DNA of 41,938 nucleotides from Candidatus Gottesmanbacteria bacterium RIFCSPHIGHO2_02_FULL_39_14 (GCA_001779205.1 MFJM01000006.1:10327-52264); one strand, 5' to 3'; counted from the stretch's first letter, positions 5,745-21,927 are shown. Notes: a model not told the origin generated them from the letters alone. Numbers and translations are program-made.

Positions 5745-5745
5745 G

Positions 5746-5817
5746 TGCCAGGGGAGAGGATCGAACTCTCGGCCGCCACGTTATGAATGTGGTGCTCTAC
5801 CACTGAGCTACCCTGGC
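5746..5817 (-). tRNA. tRNA with CAT anticodon (elongator Met more likely than Ile2); CCA not encoded
   Basis: GCCAGGG/CCCTGGC acceptor stem, TAGCTCAGTGGTAGAGC D-arm, TTCATAA loop, GAGAG-TTCGATC-CTCTC T-arm. Confidence 0.92.
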
Positions 5818-6253: not shown

Positions 6254-6326
6254 CGCGGAGTAGTGTACAGTTGCACAGGAGGCTCATAATCTCCTAGGCT
6301 AGGTGCGACTCCTAGCTCCGCAACCA
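6254..6326 (+). tRNA. Initiator-type tRNA-fMet (CAT), atypical
   Basis: CGCGGAG/CTCCGCA acceptor with C1:A72 mismatch, CTCATAA loop and encoded ACCA end. Confidence 0.88.
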
Positions 6327-13174: not shown

Positions 13175-13206
13175 TTGACAATACAATTGTATTATTGTAT
13201 TATGAT
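13175..13206 (+). promoter_or_regulatory. TA promoter with palindromic operator
   Basis: TTGACA-N17-TATTAT with the palindrome aatacaattgtatt (13180-13193) in the spacer. Confidence 0.6.
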
Positions 13207-13212
13207 ACTCAA

Positions 13213-13464
13213 ATGAATTGGATTACTACGAATATCAGATTTCCTGAAGATATTTATATGGAATTAAAGATGGAAGCCGCACGTAAGCGCCGAAGTATTG
13301 CTGATATTGTGAGAGAAAGCGTAGCTAAAAGAAAAAATATTATGGGAATAACTAATGTAGAAAAATTTTTAAAAAAAGCCGATAAAATAGCAAGAGAAAT
13401 CAGCAGACAAAATAAAGGTAAAAGCTTATCTAAGGCTCTAATTGAGATGAGATACGAACAATGA
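13213..13464 (+). CDS. Ribbon-helix-helix antitoxin (VapB-like)
   Basis: TTNIRFPEDIY.ELK.EA....RSIADIVRESV; ATGA overlap with the PIN gene. Confidence 0.8.
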   Translation: MNWITTNIRFPEDIYMELKMEAARKRRSIADIVRESVAKRKNIMGITNVEKFLKKADKIAREISRQNKGKSLSKALIEMRYEQ

Positions 13465-13886
13465 TTGTTGTAGATGCTTCAGTAGCAATTAAGTGGATCG
13501 AGAAAGAAGAGGATAGTGAAAAAGCTGTTTTATTACAAAAATCTCATTTGTTAAAGCAAAACGAGATTATTGTTCCCCAGTTAATTTATTTTGAAATTGC
13601 GAATACATTATCCACGAAATCTAAAGTTGAAGAAAAGTATATAGAGTTGGGAATAAACATAGTTTATAACACTGATTTGAAAATTGAACAGTTAGAGAAA
13701 GTTGATCTTTTAAAAGCGTCAAATCTAGCAAAAAAGTATAAAACTTCAGTTTACGATATGATTTATGCTGTTGTGGCAAAAAAATACGATACTATACTTA
13801 TCACTACAGATGAGAAATTTATTCAGAAAACAAAATTTTCTTATGTTAAATTATTAAGTGAATATACTGCCGGCACAAAAACTTGA
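13461..13886 (+). CDS. vapC: PIN-domain toxin (VapC family)
   Basis: VVDASVAIKW...E...YD..Y...A......LITTD. Confidence 0.9.
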   Translation: MIVVDASVAIKWIEKEEDSEKAVLLQKSHLLKQNEIIVPQLIYFEIANTLSTKSKVEEKYIELGINIVYNTDLKIEQLEKVDLLKASNLAKKYKTSVYDMIYAVVAKKYDTILITTDEKFIQKTKFSYVKLLSEYTAGTKT

Positions 13887-13917
13887 CAGATATGGTAAGA
13901 TAAGAGGAAATTGATAA

Positions 13918-14162
13918 AGGCGATGATGGCGTAAGGATGGGACGCCGGAGCTGACCCTAATAAGGTACGGAGGCGAAACCGTAAAAGACAGTAACATGTG
14001 TCGCGAAAGCGGAGCATGTCATGAATGAGGTTAACTCATTTCGGATATGTGTCCCCGCGAGGGGACTTTTTAATGGGTTAACGAAATAAGGTGGCACAGC
14101 GAAAGTAATTTCGCCCTTGAATTCCCAGAATATTATTTTCGGGAAAAGGAGGGCGTTTTTTT
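13918..14162 (+). promoter_or_regulatory. Trp-specific T-box riboswitch leader
   Basis: Antiterminator AAGG-TGGCACA-GCGAAA...TTTCGC-CCTT at 14088-14118. Competing terminator at 14112-14162. GA-motif Stem I with TGG at 13938-13940. TTGACA at 13883. Confidence 0.9.
14112..14162 (+). terminator. T-box terminator that also sequesters the trpE SD
   Basis: cgccctt..ttccc...gggaa..gagggcg followed by T7 immediately before ATG 14163. Confidence 0.85.
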
Positions 14163-15533
14163 ATGGAAAATATTTTTCAAAATATAAAGCTAGGCTCCTA
14201 TCAAGAGAAGGAAGTGGATTTATCCATTTCCGCTTTCGAAGTATTTAAGCGGCTTTATCCTTATTCGAAAAATATATTTTTGTTGGAATCATTAGGAGAA
14301 GAGGGCAAATACAACCGCTTCTCTTATGTAGGTTATGAACCGGAATGCGTAATTTCAGGTTTAAATGGAGAACTGATTGTTAATAACAGACTATTTAAGA
14401 GCGCAAATCCTTTTGAAAATTTAAAGATTTTTTCCAGATTTAGTAGCGCAGGCCGCGATTTCTGTGGAGGCTTGGTCGGCTATTTTTCTTATGAAGCGGC
14501 TGCCTTTTTTGAGCCTGGTTTTCCGCCAGCTAACAGAGCGGAAAAGCATGAATTTCCGGATTTTCAGTTCGGATTATATTTTGATGGATTGAAGTTCGAT
14601 AAGAGGGGGAAGAGATGTACTTACTTTCATTACGGGAATTCCAGATTAGACCAAATAATGAAAATAATAAATAAAACAAACGGAAATTTGGGACGATTTT
14701 CATATAAAACGATAAAAAATCCGGATGAGAAGGAACACCGATTTAAAGTAGAACATGCCTTGGAAGAAATTAAGAAAGGGAATATTTTTCAAGTGGTTCT
14801 ATCAGAGAGAACTGATTATCAAATCGATGGTGATAACAGGAGAATTTATGCAGTATTACGGCAGGTGAACCCTTCGCCATATATGATCTATCAGAAATTT
14901 GATATGAGGGAGATTATTTCGGCAAGTCCGGAACTACTTATTAGAGTCAAAGGAAGAAAGATTGAACATTTCGGAACACTAGCCGGGACCATAAAAAGGG
15001 GGAAAGACCAGGAAGAAGATGAAAGGTTAAGAGAAAGACTCATTGGCGATGAAAAGGAATTGGCCGAACATTTCATGCTAGTTGATTTAGCCAGAAATGA
15101 TGTCGGTAAGGTGGCCCGCTTCGGGACAATCACGGTAGACAAACTTTCGACAGTCAAGAAATTTTCCAAGGTGCAACATTTATACAGCGAGATAAGAGGA
15201 GAGCTACAAGGGCGGCGGAATTGTTTTGATGCTATTGCTGCCTGTTTTCCGGCGGGGACTTTGACTGGAGCGCCAAAAGTTGAGGCAATGAAGATAATCA
15301 GCAAGCTTGAAGAGATGCGCCGCGGGCCTTACGGAGGAGTAGCTGGATATTTTTCTTTTAACGGAGAGGTGATGCTGGCAATAATTATAAGATCGCTGAT
15401 GATTTGCCGAAATTATGCCTATACGCAAACTGGTAGCGGAATTGTGGTTGATTCTGTTCCAGATCGCGAATTTCAGGAGATAGTCAATAAACAAAATGGA
15501 ATGGATGAGACATTAAGGAGGGCTTCCTTATGA
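14163..15533 (+). CDS. trpE: Anthranilate synthase component I
   Basis: LLES, NPSPYM, SASPE, AGT..RG, EH.MLVDLARND and FPAGTLTGAPK motifs. Confidence 0.95.
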   Translation: MENIFQNIKLGSYQEKEVDLSISAFEVFKRLYPYSKNIFLLESLGEEGKYNRFSYVGYEPECVISGLNGELIVNNRLFKSANPFENLKIFSRFSSAGRDFCGGLVGYFSYEAAAFFEPGFPPANRAEKHEFPDFQFGLYFDGLKFDKRGKRCTYFHYGNSRLDQIMKIINKTNGNLGRFSYKTIKNPDEKEHRFKVEHALEEIKKGNIFQVVLSERTDYQIDGDNRRIYAVLRQVNPSPYMIYQKFDMREIISASPELLIRVKGRKIEHFGTLAGTIKRGKDQEEDERLRERLIGDEKELAEHFMLVDLARNDVGKVARFGTITVDKLSTVKKFSKVQHLYSEIRGELQGRRNCFDAIAACFPAGTLTGAPKVEAMKIISKLEEMRRGPYGGVAGYFSFNGEVMLAIIIRSLMICRNYAYTQTGSGIVVDSVPDREFQEIVNKQNGMDETLRRASL

Positions 15534-16105
15534 AAACATTGATAATCAATAATTACGATTCTTTCACTTATAACCTCTATCAGTATTTAGGGGAACTCGG
15601 CGGCAATCCGCAAGTGTTCCGCAATGATGAGATAACTTACACAGAGATAGAAAAGAAAAAATACAGCCATATCGTAATTTCTCCGGGGCCGGGAGATCCA
15701 TCCGATAAGCATTATTTCGGCGTCTGCCGGGAAGTGATATTACGCCCTGATAAAAATATTCCAATATTGGGAGTGTGTCTGGGACATCAGGGAATTATCC
15801 ATTATTACGGGGGCAGGATTGTTAGGGCCGGAAAGATATTACACGGAAAGAAAAGCAAAATTACTCATAACGGGGACGGAATTTTTAAGGAAGTTAAAAG
15901 CCCCCTATTGGGCATGCGCTACCATTCGCTTGTTGGTGAGAAAGAAACGATACCTGATGTTTTGGAAATTACCGCAGAAACGGATGATGGTGTTGTGATG
16001 GGAGTGGCACATAAACAAATACCAATTTTTGGAATTCAGTTTCATCCGGAGTCGGTGGGGACGGAAGACGGGAAAAAAATATTAAAGAATTTTTTAGAGT
16101 TTTGA
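15530..16105 (+). CDS. trpG: Anthranilate synthase component II (glutamine amidotransferase)
   Basis: NYDSFTYNL, SPGPG, GVCLGHQ, RYHSL and QFHPES motifs. Confidence 0.95.
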   Translation: MKTLIINNYDSFTYNLYQYLGELGGNPQVFRNDEITYTEIEKKKYSHIVISPGPGDPSDKHYFGVCREVILRPDKNIPILGVCLGHQGIIHYYGGRIVRAGKILHGKKSKITHNGDGIFKEVKSPLLGMRYHSLVGEKETIPDVLEITAETDDGVVMGVAHKQIPIFGIQFHPESVGTEDGKKILKNFLEF

Positions 16106-16138
16106 ACGTATAGTCCCGAATTAATCGGGATCACGTTC
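16104..16138. repeat. Intergenic hairpin (REP-like) between trpG and trpD
   Basis: gaacgt..tcccga-attaa-tcggga..acgttc. Confidence 0.6.
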
Positions 16139-16146
16139 TAAAAAAC

Positions 16147-17184
16147 ATGGAAGCACAAGAAATTTTAGAAAAATTAATAAACAGAACAGATTTAACAAAA
16201 CTTCAAAGCACGATACTTGCCGAAATAATTTTCTCCGAGGACGTACAGGCGAGTATAAAAGCGGCACTGTTGACTGCTTTAAGGATGAAAGGGGAGTCTG
16301 TGTCTGAAATTCTGGGATTTATTGAAATCATCAGAAAAGCAATGGTGAAAGTGAAGATAGATGATTTAGCGATTGATACCTGCGGCAACGGTGGAGATAA
16401 CCAGAATACTTTTAATATTTCAACGGCAGCGGCGATTGTGGCAGCAGCCTGCGGGGTGAAAGTGGCCAAACACGGCAACCGCAACATTTCGTCAAAAAGC
16501 GGAAGTGCTGATGTTTTGGAAGCAATGGGAGCAAGAGTTGATTTGACGGCAAAAGAGGTGGAAGACAGCCTTAATTTCTCCAATTTCACTTTTATGTTTG
16601 TGCCTAATTTCCATCCGATTTTCAAAAATATCGGACTTTTGAGGCGTGAGCTTAGAATAAAAACAATTTTCAATTTGCTCGGGCCGCTGGTTAATCCGGC
16701 AGGAGTGAAGCGGCAGATTATCGGCAGCGGAAGCAGGGAGGCGGCGGAAATATTAAGTAAGGTCGTGCAAAGACTTGATAATGAGCATATTCTAGTAGTT
16801 CATTCTTTTGAGGGAATGGATGAGATTAGCATATATGAGCCGACACAAGTATTTGAGATTAGAGGAAATAGAATTAAAAAATTTGTCATAAAACCAGAGG
16901 AATTCGGTTTGAGAGGAAAGGATGCAAACAATATAAGAGTCAATTCCATTGAGGAGAGTAAAGTTAAATTAACAGAGATACTTGAGGGGAGTTTTGGCGA
17001 TGCGAGAAAAATTGTTCTATTTAATTCCGCGGCTGCACTTTATGTTGGAGGACGATGTCGAAGTATTGCCGAAGGAATTAAATTTGCCGAGAAAGCAATA
17101 GACGAAGGACTAGCATATGCAGAACTTAATAAATTCATAGAGTTTAGTAAAAAAGTGAGGATGCAAAATGATCAACATATTTAA
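16147..17184 (+). CDS. trpD: Anthranilate phosphoribosyltransferase
   Basis: DTCGNGGD..TFNIST, KHGNR..SSKSGSADVLE, FNLLGPL.NP and G.DE motifs. Confidence 0.95.
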   Translation: MEAQEILEKLINRTDLTKLQSTILAEIIFSEDVQASIKAALLTALRMKGESVSEILGFIEIIRKAMVKVKIDDLAIDTCGNGGDNQNTFNISTAAAIVAAACGVKVAKHGNRNISSKSGSADVLEAMGARVDLTAKEVEDSLNFSNFTFMFVPNFHPIFKNIGLLRRELRIKTIFNLLGPLVNPAGVKRQIIGSGSREAAEILSKVVQRLDNEHILVVHSFEGMDEISIYEPTQVFEIRGNRIKKFVIKPEEFGLRGKDANNIRVNSIEESKVKLTEILEGSFGDARKIVLFNSAAALYVGGRCRSIAEGIKFAEKAIDEGLAYAELNKFIEFSKKVRMQNDQHI

Positions 17185-17839
17185 AAAAATATTAGAGGTG
17201 AGGAAATTCATTCTTATGGCTGAGATAAAAATAAAATCACCATCGGAAGGAGCATTGGGCGGGATGGAAGAGATGGAGGAAATTGCTAAAGAATATACGG
17301 ATGGGGGAGCGGATATGATTTCGGCAGTGACAGAACAAACGCATTTCGGAGGAGATTTGGGGATGATAGATAGAATAAAAAGAGTGAGCAGTTTGCCGAT
17401 TCTTTGCAAAGATTTTATTTCGGATGAAAGAGAGCTAGTTGATGTTAAAGAGCATGGTGCTGATGCTGTTTTATTATTGGTAATGTATGTATCTAAGGAG
17501 AAGTTAGTAGTGCTTTTTGACAGTGCGTTGAAAATGGGACTTGTTCCAATAGTAGAAGTTGATAACGAAGTTGACCTTAACATGGCAGTAAGAGAAAAAT
17601 TTCCGGTGGTGGCGGTTAATGCCAGGAATTTAAGGGATTTGTCGGTTGACAGAAAAAAGGCAATTTCATTGATTAGAAAAATTCCTCAAAAAGTAATTGC
17701 CCTGGCGTTTTCCGGAGTAAGAGATAAGGAAGATGTGAAAAATTATTTAAAAGCCGGAGCAAAGGGAGTGCTTATCGGGACAGTGCTAATGCGGGCAAAG
17801 GATAAGGTTTCGATGTTAAAGGAGTTGAGGGGTGTATGA
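17168..17839 (+). CDS. trpC: Indole-3-glycerol-phosphate synthase
   Basis: AEIK.KSPS.G, TE..HFGG, PIL.KDFI, GADAVLL, VEV and N.RNL motifs. Confidence 0.93.
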   Translation: MINIFKKILEVRKFILMAEIKIKSPSEGALGGMEEMEEIAKEYTDGGADMISAVTEQTHFGGDLGMIDRIKRVSSLPILCKDFISDERELVDVKEHGADAVLLLVMYVSKEKLVVLFDSALKMGLVPIVEVDNEVDLNMAVREKFPVVAVNARNLRDLSVDRKKAISLIRKIPQKVIALAFSGVRDKEDVKNYLKAGAKGVLIGTVLMRAKDKVSMLKELRGV

Positions 17840-18453
17840 AGACATTGATTAAGATTTGCGGAATAAAGGATTTGGCGGAGGCCGGAATGGCAATTAAGAA
17901 TGGGGCTGATATTCTGGGATTTAATCTTGTTAAGACTTCAAAGCGATACATTGAGCCAAAAGTGGCTAAAAATATAATCAAAAAAATAGACAGGAGGAAA
18001 GTAGAGATTGCGGGTGTGTTTCAGAATGAAGAGAAGGAGAAAGACATTGAAATAACTGATTTTTTAAAATTGGATTTAGTTCAGTTACATGGAGAAGAAG
18101 AGCCAGAAATATACAGGAGGTTAAAGACAAAAATAATTAAAGTTTTTCCGGTGGAAAGAGACTTTGATGTGGATAAACTTTTATTAGAAATGAAACAAAG
18201 TAAAGCAGATTTTTATCTTTTAGACAGGAGAAATCAGGGGAGCGGGGAAAGAATTGATGTGGAAAAGGCGAGAAGAGTTGCAGAGAAATTTTCATTATTT
18301 TTGGCCGGAGGATTAAATCCCGAAAATGTCAAAAAGGTTGTCGAGAAAGTTAAGCCGTATGCAGTTGATGTGGCTTCGGGGGTGGAAAGCGGCGGGCGAA
18401 AAGACATGCTAAAAATTCAAAAATTTATCAGAATGGTCAGATCAATATCATGA
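17836..18453 (+). CDS. trpF: Phosphoribosylanthranilate isomerase
   Basis: KICGI, VQLHG.E, LAGGLNPENV and DVASGVE motifs. Confidence 0.95.
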   Translation: MKTLIKICGIKDLAEAGMAIKNGADILGFNLVKTSKRYIEPKVAKNIIKKIDRRKVEIAGVFQNEEKEKDIEITDFLKLDLVQLHGEEEPEIYRRLKTKIIKVFPVERDFDVDKLLLEMKQSKADFYLLDRRNQGSGERIDVEKARRVAEKFSLFLAGGLNPENVKKVVEKVKPYAVDVASGVESGGRKDMLKIQKFIRMVRSIS

Positions 18454-19631
18454 GAAAGATCGATACAAAAGTAAAAAACGGTTATTTCGGTAAATTCGGA
18501 GGGCAGTTTGTGACAGAATTGCTTTATTCGGCATTGGAAGAGCTGGGAGAAGTATTTACGAAAATTAAGGAAGACCGTGAATTTCTTAAAACTTATATAA
18601 GCTTAGTGGAGGATTACGCGGGCAGGCCGACGCCTTTGTATTCAGCGGAAAATATTTCCAGGATAGTCGGCTCGCGAGTTTATTTTAAACGGGAAGATTT
18701 GCTAAATGGAGGGTCCCACAAACTTAATAATTCATTAGGCCAGGCATTAATGGTGAAATTTTTAGGAAAGAAGGAAATTGTTACTGAAACGGCGGCAGGG
18801 ATGAACGGAGTGGCGACAGCAATGGCGGCAACTGTGGCGGGATTAAAATGTAAAGTTTTTATGGGAGTCAAGGATATTGAGAGACAGAGATTGAATGCTG
18901 ATAAAATAAAACTTTTAGGTGCGGAAGTAGTTCCGGTCGAAAGAGGTTTTGGAGTCTTGAAAGATGCTGTGTCGGAAGCGCTTGTTTATTGGATTAGGAA
19001 TCTGACAACATGCCATTACCTGATCGGATCGACGGTCGGTCCACATCCATTTCCTTCAATTGTTGCTTTTTTCCAAAAGATAATCGGTGATGAGGCAAGG
19101 CGGCAGATTTTTGAGAAAGAAGGAAAGTTGCCTAGCCATATTATAGCCTGCGGTTCAGGCGGGAGTAATGCTATGGGAATTTTTCAAGCATTTATCGATG
19201 ATCCGGTAGAATTGATTTTTGTTGAAGGGGCGGAGTCGGCGGCATTAACAAAGGGTACGGTCGGAATATTTCAGGGAACAAAAACTTATGTTTTACAGGA
19301 TGAGTTTGGGATGGACAGAAAGACGGAGAGCAGGGCAGCGGGACTTAATTATCCGGGAAGAAGTCCGCAGATTGCCTATCTTTATTCTATCAGAAGAATA
19401 AAAGCGGAAACTGCAACTGACCAGGAGGTAATTGAGGCATTTTATAAAACGACAAAACTAGAAGGACTAATGCCGGCTTTTGAAACCTGTCATGCAATGG
19501 CATATTTATTCAGAAGTAAGGGAAAATTCCGAAAAAAAGATATTGTGCTTTTGAATTTTTCAGGAAGAGGAGATAAGGATATGGCAGCTGCGCTGCAAGG
19601 CAGAAAGTTCATAAAGTTTATAAAGTTATGA
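18450..19631 (+). CDS. trpB: Tryptophan synthase beta chain (divergent)
   Basis: GYFG.FGG, GRPTPL, KREDL...SHK.NN, GPHPFP, GGSNA and SGRGDKD motifs. Confidence 0.92.
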   Translation: MRKIDTKVKNGYFGKFGGQFVTELLYSALEELGEVFTKIKEDREFLKTYISLVEDYAGRPTPLYSAENISRIVGSRVYFKREDLLNGGSHKLNNSLGQALMVKFLGKKEIVTETAAGMNGVATAMAATVAGLKCKVFMGVKDIERQRLNADKIKLLGAEVVPVERGFGVLKDAVSEALVYWIRNLTTCHYLIGSTVGPHPFPSIVAFFQKIIGDEARRQIFEKEGKLPSHIIACGSGGSNAMGIFQAFIDDPVELIFVEGAESAALTKGTVGIFQGTKTYVLQDEFGMDRKTESRAAGLNYPGRSPQIAYLYSIRRIKAETATDQEVIEAFYKTTKLEGLMPAFETCHAMAYLFRSKGKFRKKDIVLLNFSGRGDKDMAAALQGRKFIKFIKL

Positions 19632-20398
19632 ATATTAAGAAAATATTAATGACGCATTTTTATTACGGGGATGTAAGTCCGGAATTTTCGGAAGATTTGG
19701 CTATGAGACTTATTAGTTCCGGGTCGGATATTCTGGAAATAGGAATTCCATATAGCGACCCGGTTTGCGACGGACCTGTTTTTCAAAAGTCATGCAGGCA
19801 GGCACTTGAGAATGGTATTACTCCTATGACAGTTTTAGCAGGAATAAAAAAAATCAGAGAAAAAACAATTAAACCAATATACTTAACAAGCTACTTTGGT
19901 CCTGTTTTCAAGTTGGGGGTGGAGAGATTTTTGAAAATGGCAGATGATACGGGAGTAAATGGACTAATAATTCCTGATTTGCCATTGGAGGAGCAAGAGA
20001 ATTTTTCAGATATTTTTAACAAATACAATTTGTCTATAATCCAATTTGCAACTGTTTATTCAGACCAAGGGCGGCTGGAGAAAATAATTAATAAATCCAA
20101 TGATTTTATTTACGGCATTTCTCATTCAGGGGTAACAGGGGATAGAGGCAATGAAAGGGAGATTCAAGATTTGATAGTTAAAATTAAAAACTTAACCGAT
20201 AAAAAAATATATTGCGGATTCGGGATCAAAACGGCAATGGATGCTAAGAAGATTATTGATTTAGGCGCAGACGGAGTAATTGTAGGAAGTGCGATTGCCG
20301 AGATTTATCAAAATAGTAAAGACCCGCAGAAAAGTTTAGAAGAAATTGAAGATTTAGTTAGAAATATTCAAAAAAAAGTTAAACTGATTATAATGTAA
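19628..20398 (+). CDS. trpA: Tryptophan synthase alpha chain
   Basis: EIGIPYSDPVCDGP, PDLP.EE, GVTG, GFGI and ADGVIVGSA motifs. Confidence 0.95.
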   Translation: MNIKKILMTHFYYGDVSPEFSEDLAMRLISSGSDILEIGIPYSDPVCDGPVFQKSCRQALENGITPMTVLAGIKKIREKTIKPIYLTSYFGPVFKLGVERFLKMADDTGVNGLIIPDLPLEEQENFSDIFNKYNLSIIQFATVYSDQGRLEKIINKSNDFIYGISHSGVTGDRGNEREIQDLIVKIKNLTDKKIYCGFGIKTAMDAKKIIDLGADGVIVGSAIAEIYQNSKDPQKSLEEIEDLVRNIQKKVKLIIM

Positions 20399-20412
20399 GA
20401 AAGGAATAAATT

Positions 20413-21927
20413 ATGGATGAAGCAGTTAAAAAATATCTTAATGAGTTAAAAGAGCTGGGGATAGAATACCAGATTTTGGAGCATCCCCAGCTTATTTCCG
20501 TGGAGAAAGTCCAGGAATATCTGGGGTACAGAATGGATGATGCCGGAGCGACACTACTGATGAAAACGGATGATAAGTTTGTAGCCATTATAAAGAGGGG
20601 CGATACTAAACTGGATAATGAAAAAATAAAGAAATATTTGGGAGTAAAAAACTTGAGGATGGCAACGGAGGAGGAATTCGAGAAGATTACACATGTACCG
20701 AGCGGAGCAGCAACGGTTTTTATTAAGGGAGTACCAATATATCTTGATAAAAAGATATTGGAGAAAGAGTATATCAATGCAGGAAGCGGGAGTTTACTGA
20801 TTACACTGCGGTATAAAACAGACGATTTTAAAAAAATCCCAGGGATTAAAATCGTTGATTTTACAAAAATTGAAACTGATAAAGAAGATTTAGGGAAAGT
20901 TATTAAAGGAGGAAAAAGAATTCTTTCCGGTATTACACCGTCGGGTGATGGAAGTCTTCACATAGGTAATTATTTGGGGGCGGTGAGGCAGTTTAAAGAA
21001 CTGGCGAAGAATAATGAGTGTTTCTTGTTTGTGGCTGATATTCATGCGTTAACGACAGTTCAGAGTAGAGAAGAATTACAGAAGAATATTGAGATTTTGA
21101 TTATAAATGAATTGGCTCTGTTGGGTGAATTGTCAAATATCACTTTTTTCAGACAATCGGATGTTCCTATGCATACGGAATTACAGTCAATACTCAATAA
21201 TGTGACACCATTGGGATTGATAAAAAGGGCTCATGCTTATAAGGATAAACTGCAGAAGGGGTTAACCGAGGAAGAGATGAACATGGGACTTTTTTGTTAT
21301 CCGATTCTGATGGCGGCGGATATATTAATTTATAAACCGGATATTGTTCCTGTGGGACAGGATCAGAAGCAGCATTTGGAGATAACCAGGGATATTGCCG
21401 AAAATTTTAATAAAACCTACAGAAAGAAAGTTTTTCCATTACCAGAATCACATATTCCCAAAGAAGTAGCAGTTATTATGGGAACAGATGGGAAGAGGAA
21501 GATGAGCAAATCGTTGGGGAATATTATCAGTATATTTGATGACGAAGCGATTATTAAAAAACAGGTAATGTCGACTTATACCGATCCGACCAGAAAACAC
21601 GCAATAGATCCTGGGCATATTGAGGGGAACATGGTATTTACATATTTGGACTTCTTCGGAAAAAAGAAAAGAGTTGAAGAGTTGAAAAGTTTATATCGAG
21701 TGGGGAAAGTGGGGGATGTAGAGGTAAAAAATTTTCTGTTAAAGACATTGATTAAATATTTTGCTCCGGCACGAGAGAGATACCAAGAGTTAAAATCCAA
21801 TCCGCAAAAGGTGAGAAAAATCCTCATGGAGGGGTCGGAGAGAGCCAGGGAAGTGGCAAGCACAACAATGGTGGAAGTCAGGGAAGCTGTGGGGTTGACT
21901 AATAAATACTCTTTCTTCGAATATTAA
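20413..21927 (+). CDS. trpS: Tryptophanyl-tRNA synthetase with N-terminal YbaK/ProX-like domain
   Basis: SGITPSG..HIGNY.GA, YPILMAADIL, VPVG.DQ.QH.E and KMSKS motifs. The first ~150 aa look YbaK-like. Confidence 0.93.
   Translation: MDEAVKKYLNELKELGIEYQILEHPQLISVEKVQEYLGYRMDDAGATLLMKTDDKFVAIIKRGDTKLDNEKIKKYLGVKNLRMATEEEFEKITHVPSGAATVFIKGVPIYLDKKILEKEYINAGSGSLLITLRYKTDDFKKIPGIKIVDFTKIETDKEDLGKVIKGGKRILSGITPSGDGSLHIGNYLGAVRQFKELAKNNECFLFVADIHALTTVQSREELQKNIEILIINELALLGELSNITFFRQSDVPMHTELQSILNNVTPLGLIKRAHAYKDKLQKGLTEEEMNMGLFCYPILMAADILIYKPDIVPVGQDQKQHLEITRDIAENFNKTYRKKVFPLPESHIPKEVAVIMGTDGKRKMSKSLGNIISIFDDEAIIKKQVMSTYTDPTRKHAIDPGHIEGNMVFTYLDFFGKKKRVEELKSLYRVGKVGDVEVKNFLLKTLIKYFAPARERYQELKSNPQKVRKILMEGSERAREVASTTMVEVREAVGLTNKYSFFEY

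Follow-up and report, generated by a model that had tools for sequence, protein, structure and literature searches.

What kind of RNA is the 276-nt leader that separates a PIN-domain ORF (13461-13886) from the trpE ATG at 14163, and which signal does it read? The window, i.e. the whole stretch of 41,938 nucleotides analysed here, comes from Candidatus Gottesmanbacteria bacterium RIFCSPHIGHO2_02_FULL_39_14, whose genome comprises 1.44 Mb in 72 contigs with 38% G+C and is 85.5% complete. The preliminary description, made from the sequence with its origin withheld, had proposed a Trp-specific T-box riboswitch with an ultrashort Stem I in a CPR-like genome. The genome was placed correctly: the closest TrpE relatives (60-61% identity) belong to MAGs labelled Candidatus Gottesmanbacteria, the closest named relatives, which are placed in the Patescibacteria/Microgenomates group (CPR). 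Our analysis confirms that the leader is a real Trp T-box. Very probably, it senses tRNA-Trp and controls the trpEGDCFBA(-trpS-like) operon by transcription attenuation, using an unusually compact decoding module. The elements of the locus are as follows.

13883..13901, plus strand: promoter-like region, TTGACA (13883-88) followed by TGGTAAGAT (13893-13901), extended -10-like; read by eye.
13914-14162, plus strand: Trp T-box leader.
13920..13951, plus strand: ultrashort Stem I; Rfam alignment, fold and covariation.
13920-26 and 13947-51, plus strand: K-turn strands GCGAUGA and GGAGC; Rfam alignment.
13938..13941, plus strand: specifier UGG (13938-40) with the 3' purine G (13941) in the terminal loop.
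13954..13966, plus strand: mini Stem II, ACC/GGU with the A-rich loop CUAAUAA; covariation.
13967..13992, plus strand: Stem IIA, ACGG/CCGU with loop AGGCGAAA (13967-82), and its pseudoknot partner; Rfam alignment and covariation.
13994..14019, plus strand: extra helix P, ACAUG/CAUGU with a non-canonical UGU/GAG stretch and a GAAA-capped tip; covariation.
14030..14082, plus strand: Stem III, 11 bp (14030-40 with 14072-82), with T1 at its tip; fold and Rfam alignment.
14051..14071, plus strand: T1, GUCCCC-GCGA-GGGGAC followed by U5, inside Stem III and upstream of the antiterminator; terminator scan.
14087..14119, plus strand: antiterminator, A1 (14087-91/14115-19), bulge UGGCACA (14092-98) and A2 (14099-14104/14109-14); Rfam alignment and fold.
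14112..14162, plus strand: intrinsic terminator, CGCCCUU (14112-18) with GAGGGCG (14149-55), upper part UUCCC/GGGAA, and U7 (14156-62); fold.
14146..14165, plus strand: Shine-Dalgarno (SD) sequence AAGGAGG (14146-52) and trpE ATG (14163-65).
14163..21927, plus strand: regulated genes trpE, trpG, trpD, trpC, trpF, trpB and trpA and a W/Y tRNA synthetase; ORFs and Pfam.

The last of the regulated genes encodes a class-I W/Y tRNA synthetase with a fused N-terminal YbaK-type editing domain (Pfam). At the other end, the promoter-like region overlaps the stop codon of the upstream PIN gene, and the arrangement TTGACA-N4-TGGTAWGAT also lies upstream of two related leaders (L007 and L008); judging by this motif, the region may serve as the promoter. 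The consensus scan reported no plus-strand promoter here because the spacing of TTGACA and -10 is atypical.

The identity of the leader as a T-box is established by its alignment to RF00230 (T-box), which joins 13914-14121 to model positions 1-219 with 49.5 bits and an E-value of 4.4e-10. It had been expected that this model would match the antiterminator only; instead the alignment runs end to end with the distal Stem I alone deleted; K-turn strands, Stem IIA, Stem III and T-box sequence are all accommodated in it. The score does not reach the curated gathering threshold of 93 bits because 71 Stem I positions of the model are deleted, leaving 7 nt in this leader. At Rfam gathering thresholds the window yields a tRNA only, and the T-box surfaces with E-value reporting. 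The same holds for the host genome, where four clear T-box matches (E 2.4e-4 or better) and two weaker ones all lie under the Rfam cut-off. The fold of the whole leader has a z-score of -3.28, and none of 200 shuffles is equally stable. The core features of a T-box (K-turn, specifier with purine, IIA/B, Stem III, UGGN bulge, antiterminator and terminator) are all found in the leader. Every element listed in the preliminary description was recovered where it had been placed, including the short hairpins, seen here at 13967-82, 13994-14019, 14024-40 and 14051-66.

Stem I is the most reduced of these elements. Its helix consists of 6 bp (13927-32 with 13942-47), formed by the strands U, GGCGU / ACGCC as a basal U.G pair and five Watson-Crick pairs, and it is capped by the 9-nt terminal loop AAGGAUGGG (13933-41). 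The predicted K-turn strands below it match the RF00230 model; in the alignment of relatives G12 and A13 are invariant and the C-stem pair 7-38 covaries. As had been supposed, the leader has no Stem I of ~100 nt: the K-turn strands are separated by 20 nt only (13927-13946), so that a long Stem I cannot fit, and the distal elbow-binding platform (AG bulge and distal loop) is absent. The hairpin alone is not exceptionally stable (z -1.29, 22 of 200 shuffles as stable) and was therefore judged by comparison, so that its reality rests on covariation. The preliminary description had proposed a covariation test across related leaders, and we ran it on the first 45 nt of 33 distinct leaders aligned with MAFFT; these rows were picked by their loop motif, and the stem was not a selection criterion. 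The stem is paired in 99.4% of cells, all 6 of its 6 pairs show compensatory double changes, and the observed covariation score is reached by none of 500 shuffles. For the hairpin, 95.9% of cells are paired in the 33 leaders versus 69.6 +/- 1.8 in shuffles, and sliding the partners by 1-3 columns leaves at most 57.4% pairing. The stem that carries UGG thus covaries, and UGG lies in the terminal loop that caps it, as originally read.

For the elements after Stem I we used R1, a covariance model of the first 116 nt (13914-14029) that combines the leader of the window with three from Gottesmanbacteria. In this leader 3 bp make up Stem II (3-6 bp among its relatives), and the A-rich loop measures 6-8 nt; its pairs 40-52, 41-51 and 42-50 are 100% paired with 10-16 double changes each in a 34-row alignment which, being fitted to R1, favours pairs already in that model. 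The stem is too short for an S-turn, and no internal loop of AGUA/GAA type is present. Stem IIB is a pseudoknot in which G13991 and U13992 pair with C13974 and G13973 of the IIA loop. Its pair 59-79, loop G59 with C79, lies outside the R1 model and covaries (GC in 27 rows, GU in 3, AU in 1 and CG in 2). An alternative pairing of the IIA loop with UGUC was replaced by that with AGC/AGU, where a G-to-C change in the loop covaries with C-to-G in the partner. Helix P is absent from the Rfam T-box consensus and is handled as an insertion in the alignment; it covaries at pairs 83-104, 84-103 and 85-102, its internal UGU/GAG stretch is conserved, and it is also found in the Arg and His leaders of the host genome. 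We also considered an S-turn around helix P, where the window reads AGUA...GAA, and ruled it out, relatives having AGCA at this place. Helix P or the A-rich loop of Stem II may have taken over the lateral support of the codon-anticodon helix.

The antiterminator is formed by AAGG/CCUU and GCGAAA/UUUCGC and folds alone with -8.1 kcal/mol. Of 38 related leaders, 23 show its shape under a strict test (9 of 9 contiguous pairs in A1, 7-nt bulge and A2), and their A2 helices comprise 13 distinct 5-mers; the other 15 failed. The ending ACA of the bulge, noted earlier as a departure from the consensus ACC, lies within the variation of the lineage (ACC, AAC, ACG and ACA). The terminator (14112-14155) folds with -21.1 kcal/mol (z -3.79, one of 200 shuffles as stable), and the two structures are mutually exclusive, with 14112-19 as the common segment. 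Both energies are near the database averages given in the TBDB preprint (-7.4 kcal/mol for antiterminators and -19.5 kcal/mol for terminators). The terminator scan missed this main terminator and listed T1 only, because the loop and internal loop of the former exceed the rules of the scan. Among the 38 related leaders, 31 received a terminator call with a U5-U8 run at its end.

On these grounds we propose the following course of events. The nascent leader would fold into the K-turn and the 6-bp Stem I, whose 9-nt loop presents UGG and the following purine, and would then add the 3-bp Stem II, the IIA/B pseudoknot and helix P. The anticodon CCA of tRNA-Trp would pair with UGG, and the 3' GCCA end of an uncharged tRNA would in addition pair with the bulge UGGC (14092-95). 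This pairing is expected to stabilise the weak antiterminator against the much stronger terminator with its U7 tail, and RNA polymerase would then read into trpE. T-box identity, the covarying structure, the fit to the host tRNA-Trp, the genes downstream and the conservation are computed results, whereas binding of the tRNA, as well as termination and antitermination by the host polymerase, is inferred here. On read-through transcripts that refold, the terminator helix would hide the ribosome-binding site too, with the U-tract as the spacer to the ATG.

One element of the leader counts against this main explanation. T1 lies upstream of the antiterminator and, if it were an efficient terminator, it would pre-empt the decision of the T-box. 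Stem III as a whole folds with -23.5 kcal/mol (z -4.46, none of 200 shuffles as stable), and the Rfam alignment places it with a large insertion. T1 was flagged as terminator-like by the scan, and 22 of the 29 UGG-type leaders have a comparable hairpin with a U4-U7 run in this position, compared with a background of 9 among 290 coding windows and 4 among 290 shuffles. RNAalifold gave no consensus structure for 21 Stem III/T1 segments because the MAFFT alignment is not structure-aware, and T1 was therefore assessed by folding each sequence with controls. The base of T1 is conserved in sequence (UCCC...GGGA followed by U5-7). T1 is missing or its U-run is broken in leaders L105, L108, L120, L122, L123, L131 and L134. 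The Arg and His leaders of the host genome have a short Stem I and no T1, so T1 is not a general remedy for a short Stem I. Several partners were tried for T1. The Stem I loop as a partner of its 5' strand (in the window GGGAC/GUCCC), pairing of the A-run after IIA with the U-run and pairing of UGAC with GUCA were each dropped, none of them being conserved in relatives; a K-turn in the UGAUGA-like 5' flank was rejected, the opposite strand being all U. Most likely, T1 acts as a hairpin-stabilised pause or a partial stop that would buy time for tRNA capture. A pause in Stem III is found in glyQS of B. subtilis.

Of the 21 genomes of the family, which also make up the whole order in our sample, 20 contain the 5' module according to R1; among the 151 genomes sampled from the class it is found in 46. 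In a phylum sample of 151 genomes R1 gives two weak matches besides the genome of the window. With RF00230, 74 of the 151 class genomes have a match at E <= 1e-3, and 8 of the 151 have one above the cut-off; the unpublished genome G086 is counted in this tally. T-boxes in CPR are thus not new, as canonical ones occur in the class; it is the architecture that is new. In metagenomes, a 17-mer taken from IIA picked out 80 loci, and these yielded 55 R1 matches at E <= 1e-6 and 53 distinct modules. Downstream of 13 of these 53, tRNA-Trp lies within 900 nt, and 11 of the 13 tRNA-Trp genes directly follow a T-box motif and terminator.

Some loci appear to hold the module alone. Leaders L130, L132, L133 and L137 consist of the module, a hairpin with a U-run and tRNA-Trp, with no T-box match at E <= 1; L129 likewise lacks such a match, and in L122 a weak T-box precedes tRNA-Trp. 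The tRNA gene is followed by trpS in L137 (Pfam) and, as read by eye, in L129 and L132. L168 has two modules: the first leads through a hairpin with U8 to tRNA-Trp without a T-box, and a separate promoter-like site and a full Trp T-box come next. In L130, L132, L133, L137 and the first module of L168 the tRNA-Trp gene begins 3-60 nt past the hairpin and U-run, which leaves no room for a promoter. In L203 the module and T1 occur together with a YbaK-like ORF, and no T-box motif is present. The loop of the last terminator in leaders L129 and L159 may contain a minimal UGGY element, and for this reason the statement that a discriminator-reading element is lacking is provisional.

These loci invite another interpretation of T1, according to which the leader is an attenuator with two checkpoints. 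T1 would be the regulated terminator, set by occupancy of the module (hence by anticodon and abundance of tRNA-Trp), and the T-box terminator would then read charging; where there is no discriminator, T1 alone would give feedback on the expression of tRNA-Trp and trpS. The recurrence of T1 at one place, against ~1-3% in controls, and the conservation of its base fit this proposal, as do the five tRNA-Trp loci without promoter room, four of which have no T-box match, and L203. We nevertheless regard it as unlikely. Among the leaders compared, no conserved alternative pairing was found that would join occupancy of the module to formation of T1; termination promoted by tRNA would oppose the downstream T-box in the same leader; the seven leaders with a missing or broken T1 do not fit; and the possible UGGY element of L129 and L159 weakens the case for an absent discriminator. 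A broader statement can be made tentatively. It is possible that Microgenomates hold distinct co-transcriptional T-box modules without platform and S-turn (apical specifier hairpin, mini Stem II, IIA/B and helix P), the Trp version of which embeds the T1 terminator or pause before the discriminator and stands alone before tRNA-Trp(-trpS) without a charging sensor. If this is true, the stand-alone module would be an anticodon-only riboswitch that reports the abundance of the tRNA rather than its aminoacylation and autoregulates the gene of its own ligand.

The expression platform raises a different doubt, namely whether the switch is purely translational, as in the actinobacterial ileS T-boxes. 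The helix 14112-55 would then be an SD sequestrator only and U7 an incidental spacer. The SD sequence indeed lies within the 3' arm of the terminator, its bases G14149-G14152 are paired in the terminator base, and the U7 run adjoins the trpE ATG. This layout, a start codon adjoining the U-run with an SD-like motif in the 3' arm, recurs in at least 11 leaders of the family; for the leader of the window, the preliminary description already had a U7-tailed terminator that pairs with AAGGAGG. Besides, an ultrashort Stem I is known to date from translational T-boxes (review PMC7583486). A purely translational switch is nonetheless improbable, as the U5-U8 runs after the helix in 31 relatives include those of other families, whose terminator 3' arm UGCAAGGGC has no nearby start codon and whose ORF begins 5 to >100 nt further on; the U-runs are thus present even where the ORF is not adjacent. 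The helix also has the stability and the shape of an intrinsic terminator. We conclude that transcription attenuation, as far as sequences can tell, is probably the mechanism of the whole leader class. Since the SD sequence is in the terminator 3' arm and the U-tract adjoins the ATG, extra translational control, which the preliminary description had suggested as a possibility, is plausible, and this layout may be a family-level compaction that adds translational masking to attenuation.

The assignment of the terminal-loop UGG as the specifier can be examined in the same way. The hairpin might have another role, with the codon located elsewhere or another tRNA with G73 being sensed. Such a reading would appeal to the conserved GG at loop positions 3-4, since GGA and GGU are Gly codons, and to the size of the loop, 9-10 nt as opposed to 7 nt in the GU-NNN-GA format seen in the His and Arg leaders. 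The comparison of loops leaves it very little probability. Their layout is two bases, GG, A or U, UGG and one or two purines; the motif GG[AU]UGG[AG] is present in 30 of 32 R1 matches of at least 60 bits (leaders L107 and L109 are the two without the standard UGG hairpin) and in 37 of the 53 metagenome modules. Nine more of the latter have GAUUGG[AG], i.e. the first GG is replaced by GA, so that UGG alone is conserved as a codon. In the tRNA-Gly genes of the host the discriminator is U, a mismatch to the bulge UGGC, and GGA of the loop is therefore excluded as the specifier. Most relatives read UUGGA in the loop, which is complementary to positions 33-37 of tRNA-Trp (UCCAA), and an extended loop-loop pairing between leader and tRNA-Trp is therefore possible. 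In known structures the purine 3' of the specifier stacks and does not pair (review PMC7583486).

The other end of the tRNA agrees with UGG as the specifier. ARAGORN called 27 tRNA genes in the host genome, with a single detected tRNA-Trp(CCA) whose discriminator is G, and the bulge UGGC fits this G73; the pairing of the variable bulge base C with G73, initially assumed from bacterial tRNA-Trp in general, is thereby borne out. The gene contexts are specific for Trp as well. The 17 UGG-type leaders of the family precede TrpE (12), a TrpB-like PALP enzyme (2), an Asp/Glu-type racemase (1) and unknown proteins (2); those of other families precede TrpRS, YbaK-TrpRS, TrpB-like, weak TrpD-like or unknown genes or tRNA-Trp. 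Both the tRNA match and these contexts support the Trp specificity proposed at the outset. Sister leaders carry codons matched to their operons in the same loop position: the 7-nt loop GUCACGA (CAC), combined with the bulge UGGG, has HisG downstream in 6 of 7 tested leaders, and the loop GUCGCGA (CGC), combined with the bulge UGGC, has ornithine carbamoyltransferase (argF) downstream in one leader. The bulges of the His and Arg leaders fit tRNA-His (C73) and tRNA-Arg(GCG) (G73) of the host, respectively. As their loops carry operon-matched codons, these leaders provide independent support for terminal-loop specifiers in this lineage.

Finally, that the leader is a decaying, non-functional remnant of a T-box is suggested by the Rfam score under threshold and is hardly credible in view of the compensatory changes in every helix tested, the presence of the module in 20 of 21 family genomes and the intact antiterminator and terminator.

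Comparison with known systems shows where the tRNA-Trp-sensing attenuator departs from them. Ultrashort Stem I was described for the ileS T-boxes of actinobacteria (Mycobacterium, Nocardia farcinica) by Sherwood et al. 2015, as relayed in PMC7583486 and PMC10651847. The likeness to these T-boxes claimed in the preliminary description holds for Stem I: both have the K-turn, a short Stem I, an apical-loop specifier and a purine 3' of the codon, and both lack the elbow-binding platform. It does not hold for Stem II and the expression platform. In actinobacterial ileS Stem II is long and its S-turn is critical for tRNA binding (PMC7583486, PMC10651847), whereas here it is a 3-6 bp hairpin with an A-rich loop, followed after IIB by the extra helix P, and the platform is an intrinsic terminator with a U-tract rather than an SD sequestrator alone. 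The specificity and the host differ too, Ile in an actinobacterium being replaced by Trp (and by His, Arg and others in sister leaders) in a CPR bacterium. Insertions in Stem III are shared with short-Stem-I T-boxes, as noted in a review (PMC7583486). Like the minimal T-boxes of glyQS type, our leader dispenses with one whole domain, but glyQS has kept a long Stem I and has no Stem II domain (review PMC7583486), whereas here the distal Stem I is lost and a reduced Stem II is kept together with IIA/B.

With canonical RF00230 T-boxes the leader shares the order of K-turn, IIA/B, Stem III and UGGN bulge, the exclusive antiterminator and terminator with a U-tract, the match of the bulge base to the discriminator and the type of operon regulated. 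The trp operons of Firmicutes have canonical transcriptional Trp T-boxes. Unlike these, our leader is devoid of the distal Stem I with its specifier internal loop, AG bulge and distal loop platform, and it scores at about half the gathering threshold; moreover, it contains a terminator-like hairpin with a U-run within Stem III, and its SD sequence and start codon are fused to the terminator. A search of full-text literature that would tie the T-box to CPR, Patescibacteria, Microgenomates or a missing Stem I returned no paper, and a prior description is possible. What is new here is the class-wide 5' module, the mini Stem II without S-turn, the extra helix, T1 in Stem III and, provisionally, the module-only loci before tRNA-Trp without a detectable discriminator. 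The position of a T-box or module directly before tRNA-Trp genes makes them an unusual regulatory target.

According to the review PMC7583486, transcriptional T-boxes generally need the elbow-binding platform of a long Stem I for fast capture of the tRNA, and it is the slower translational switches that have a truncated Stem I, for which the S-turn of Stem II compensates. The combination of an ultrashort Stem I, a mini Stem II and a canonical terminator with a U-tract is therefore not expected from current accounts. If these leaders work as they are read here, the kinetic argument for the platform may be incomplete. Alternatively, the lineage may have found a solution of its own (helix P, extended loop-loop pairing or a pause at T1), or transcription in CPR may be slow enough to do without the platform. 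The decoding module of ~116 nt is compact and attractive for structural work and engineering. For the biology of the group, the sub-threshold scores of all T-boxes of the host mean that the amino-acid regulons of CPR are largely invisible to standard annotation.

At the tip of Stem III of the window's Trp leader, 5' of the antiterminator, lies T1 (window 14051-14071), a terminator-like hairpin followed by a U-run. Such a hairpin is present in 22 of the 29 Trp leaders versus 1-3% in controls, and its base sequence is conserved (UCCC...GGGA-U5-7). Hairpins of the T1 type with a U-run are also found in loci L092-L104 and at other loci.

The trp leaders of two Gottesmanbacteria relatives (L008 and L009) were not reported by the Rfam T-box model even at E <= 1. 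Both are complete T-boxes according to R1, the covariance model of the decoding module, and to direct reading; the class is therefore missed by standard annotation. The window's own genome harbors further sub-threshold T-box leaders with a short Stem I (L002 on contig C44, L003 on C43, L004 on C14 and L088 on C13). The leaders of this genome include the following:

Arg leader: specifier CGC in the loop GUCGCGA, 5' of argF
His leader: specifier CAC in the loop GUCACGA
Probable Ser leader: 5' of two genes, one HAD-like and one serA-like
Leader at a contig end: loop UUUCCCG

Next to the specifier hairpin, an additional hairpin is present in both the Arg and the His leader.

The surroundings of the trp leader in the window comprise the following genes:

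5745-5817 (-) and 6254-6326 (+): a divergent pair of tRNA-Met(CAT) genes
13195-13886: a PIN-domain ORF overlapped by an 89-aa ORF, the pair being immediately 5' of the leader
20413-21927: a class-I W/Y tRNA synthetase (TrpRS-like) that closes the trp operon and is fused at its N terminus to an editing domain of the YbaK/ProX type

The 89-aa ORF has no Pfam match; together with the PIN ORF it looks like a VapBC-type toxin-antitoxin pair. A YbaK/ProX-TrpRS-like fusion is likewise located 3' of a Trp leader at L128, which belongs to another family of the class. The stop codon of the PIN ORF falls inside a promoter-like TTGACA. The arrangement TTGACA-N4-TGGTAWGAT is conserved in the window (13883-13901) and 5' of the L007 and L008 leaders; no more than 4-5 nt separate its -35-like box from its extended -10-like box, an atypical spacing for sigma-70 promoters.

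In some Gottesmanbacteria the T-box terminator and trpE are separated by about 90-150 nt (L009 1365-1500; also L099 and L105), and this stretch starts with the specifier-loop-like GAUGGUUGGUUAAC.

At L130, L132, L133, L137 and L168:12890-13125 nothing but a hairpin with a U-run separates the Trp decoding module from a tRNA-Trp gene 3' of it. Further loci of the module-then-hairpin type are L129, L159 and L203, the last with a YbaK-like ORF in place of tRNA-Trp. At some module-only loci trpS lies 3' of the tRNA-Trp gene. A T-box discriminator was detected at none of these loci; a terminator loop of L129 and L159 may contain a minimal UGGY element.

Full T-box leaders are also situated directly 5' of tRNA-Trp genes (L122, L153, L155, L157, L165, L179, L180, L181, L187, L188, L189 and L212), and in the window's genome a full T-box leader (L004, contig C14) directly precedes tRNA-His, followed by hisG. 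The gene of a T-box's own ligand tRNA is an unusual target of T-box regulation.
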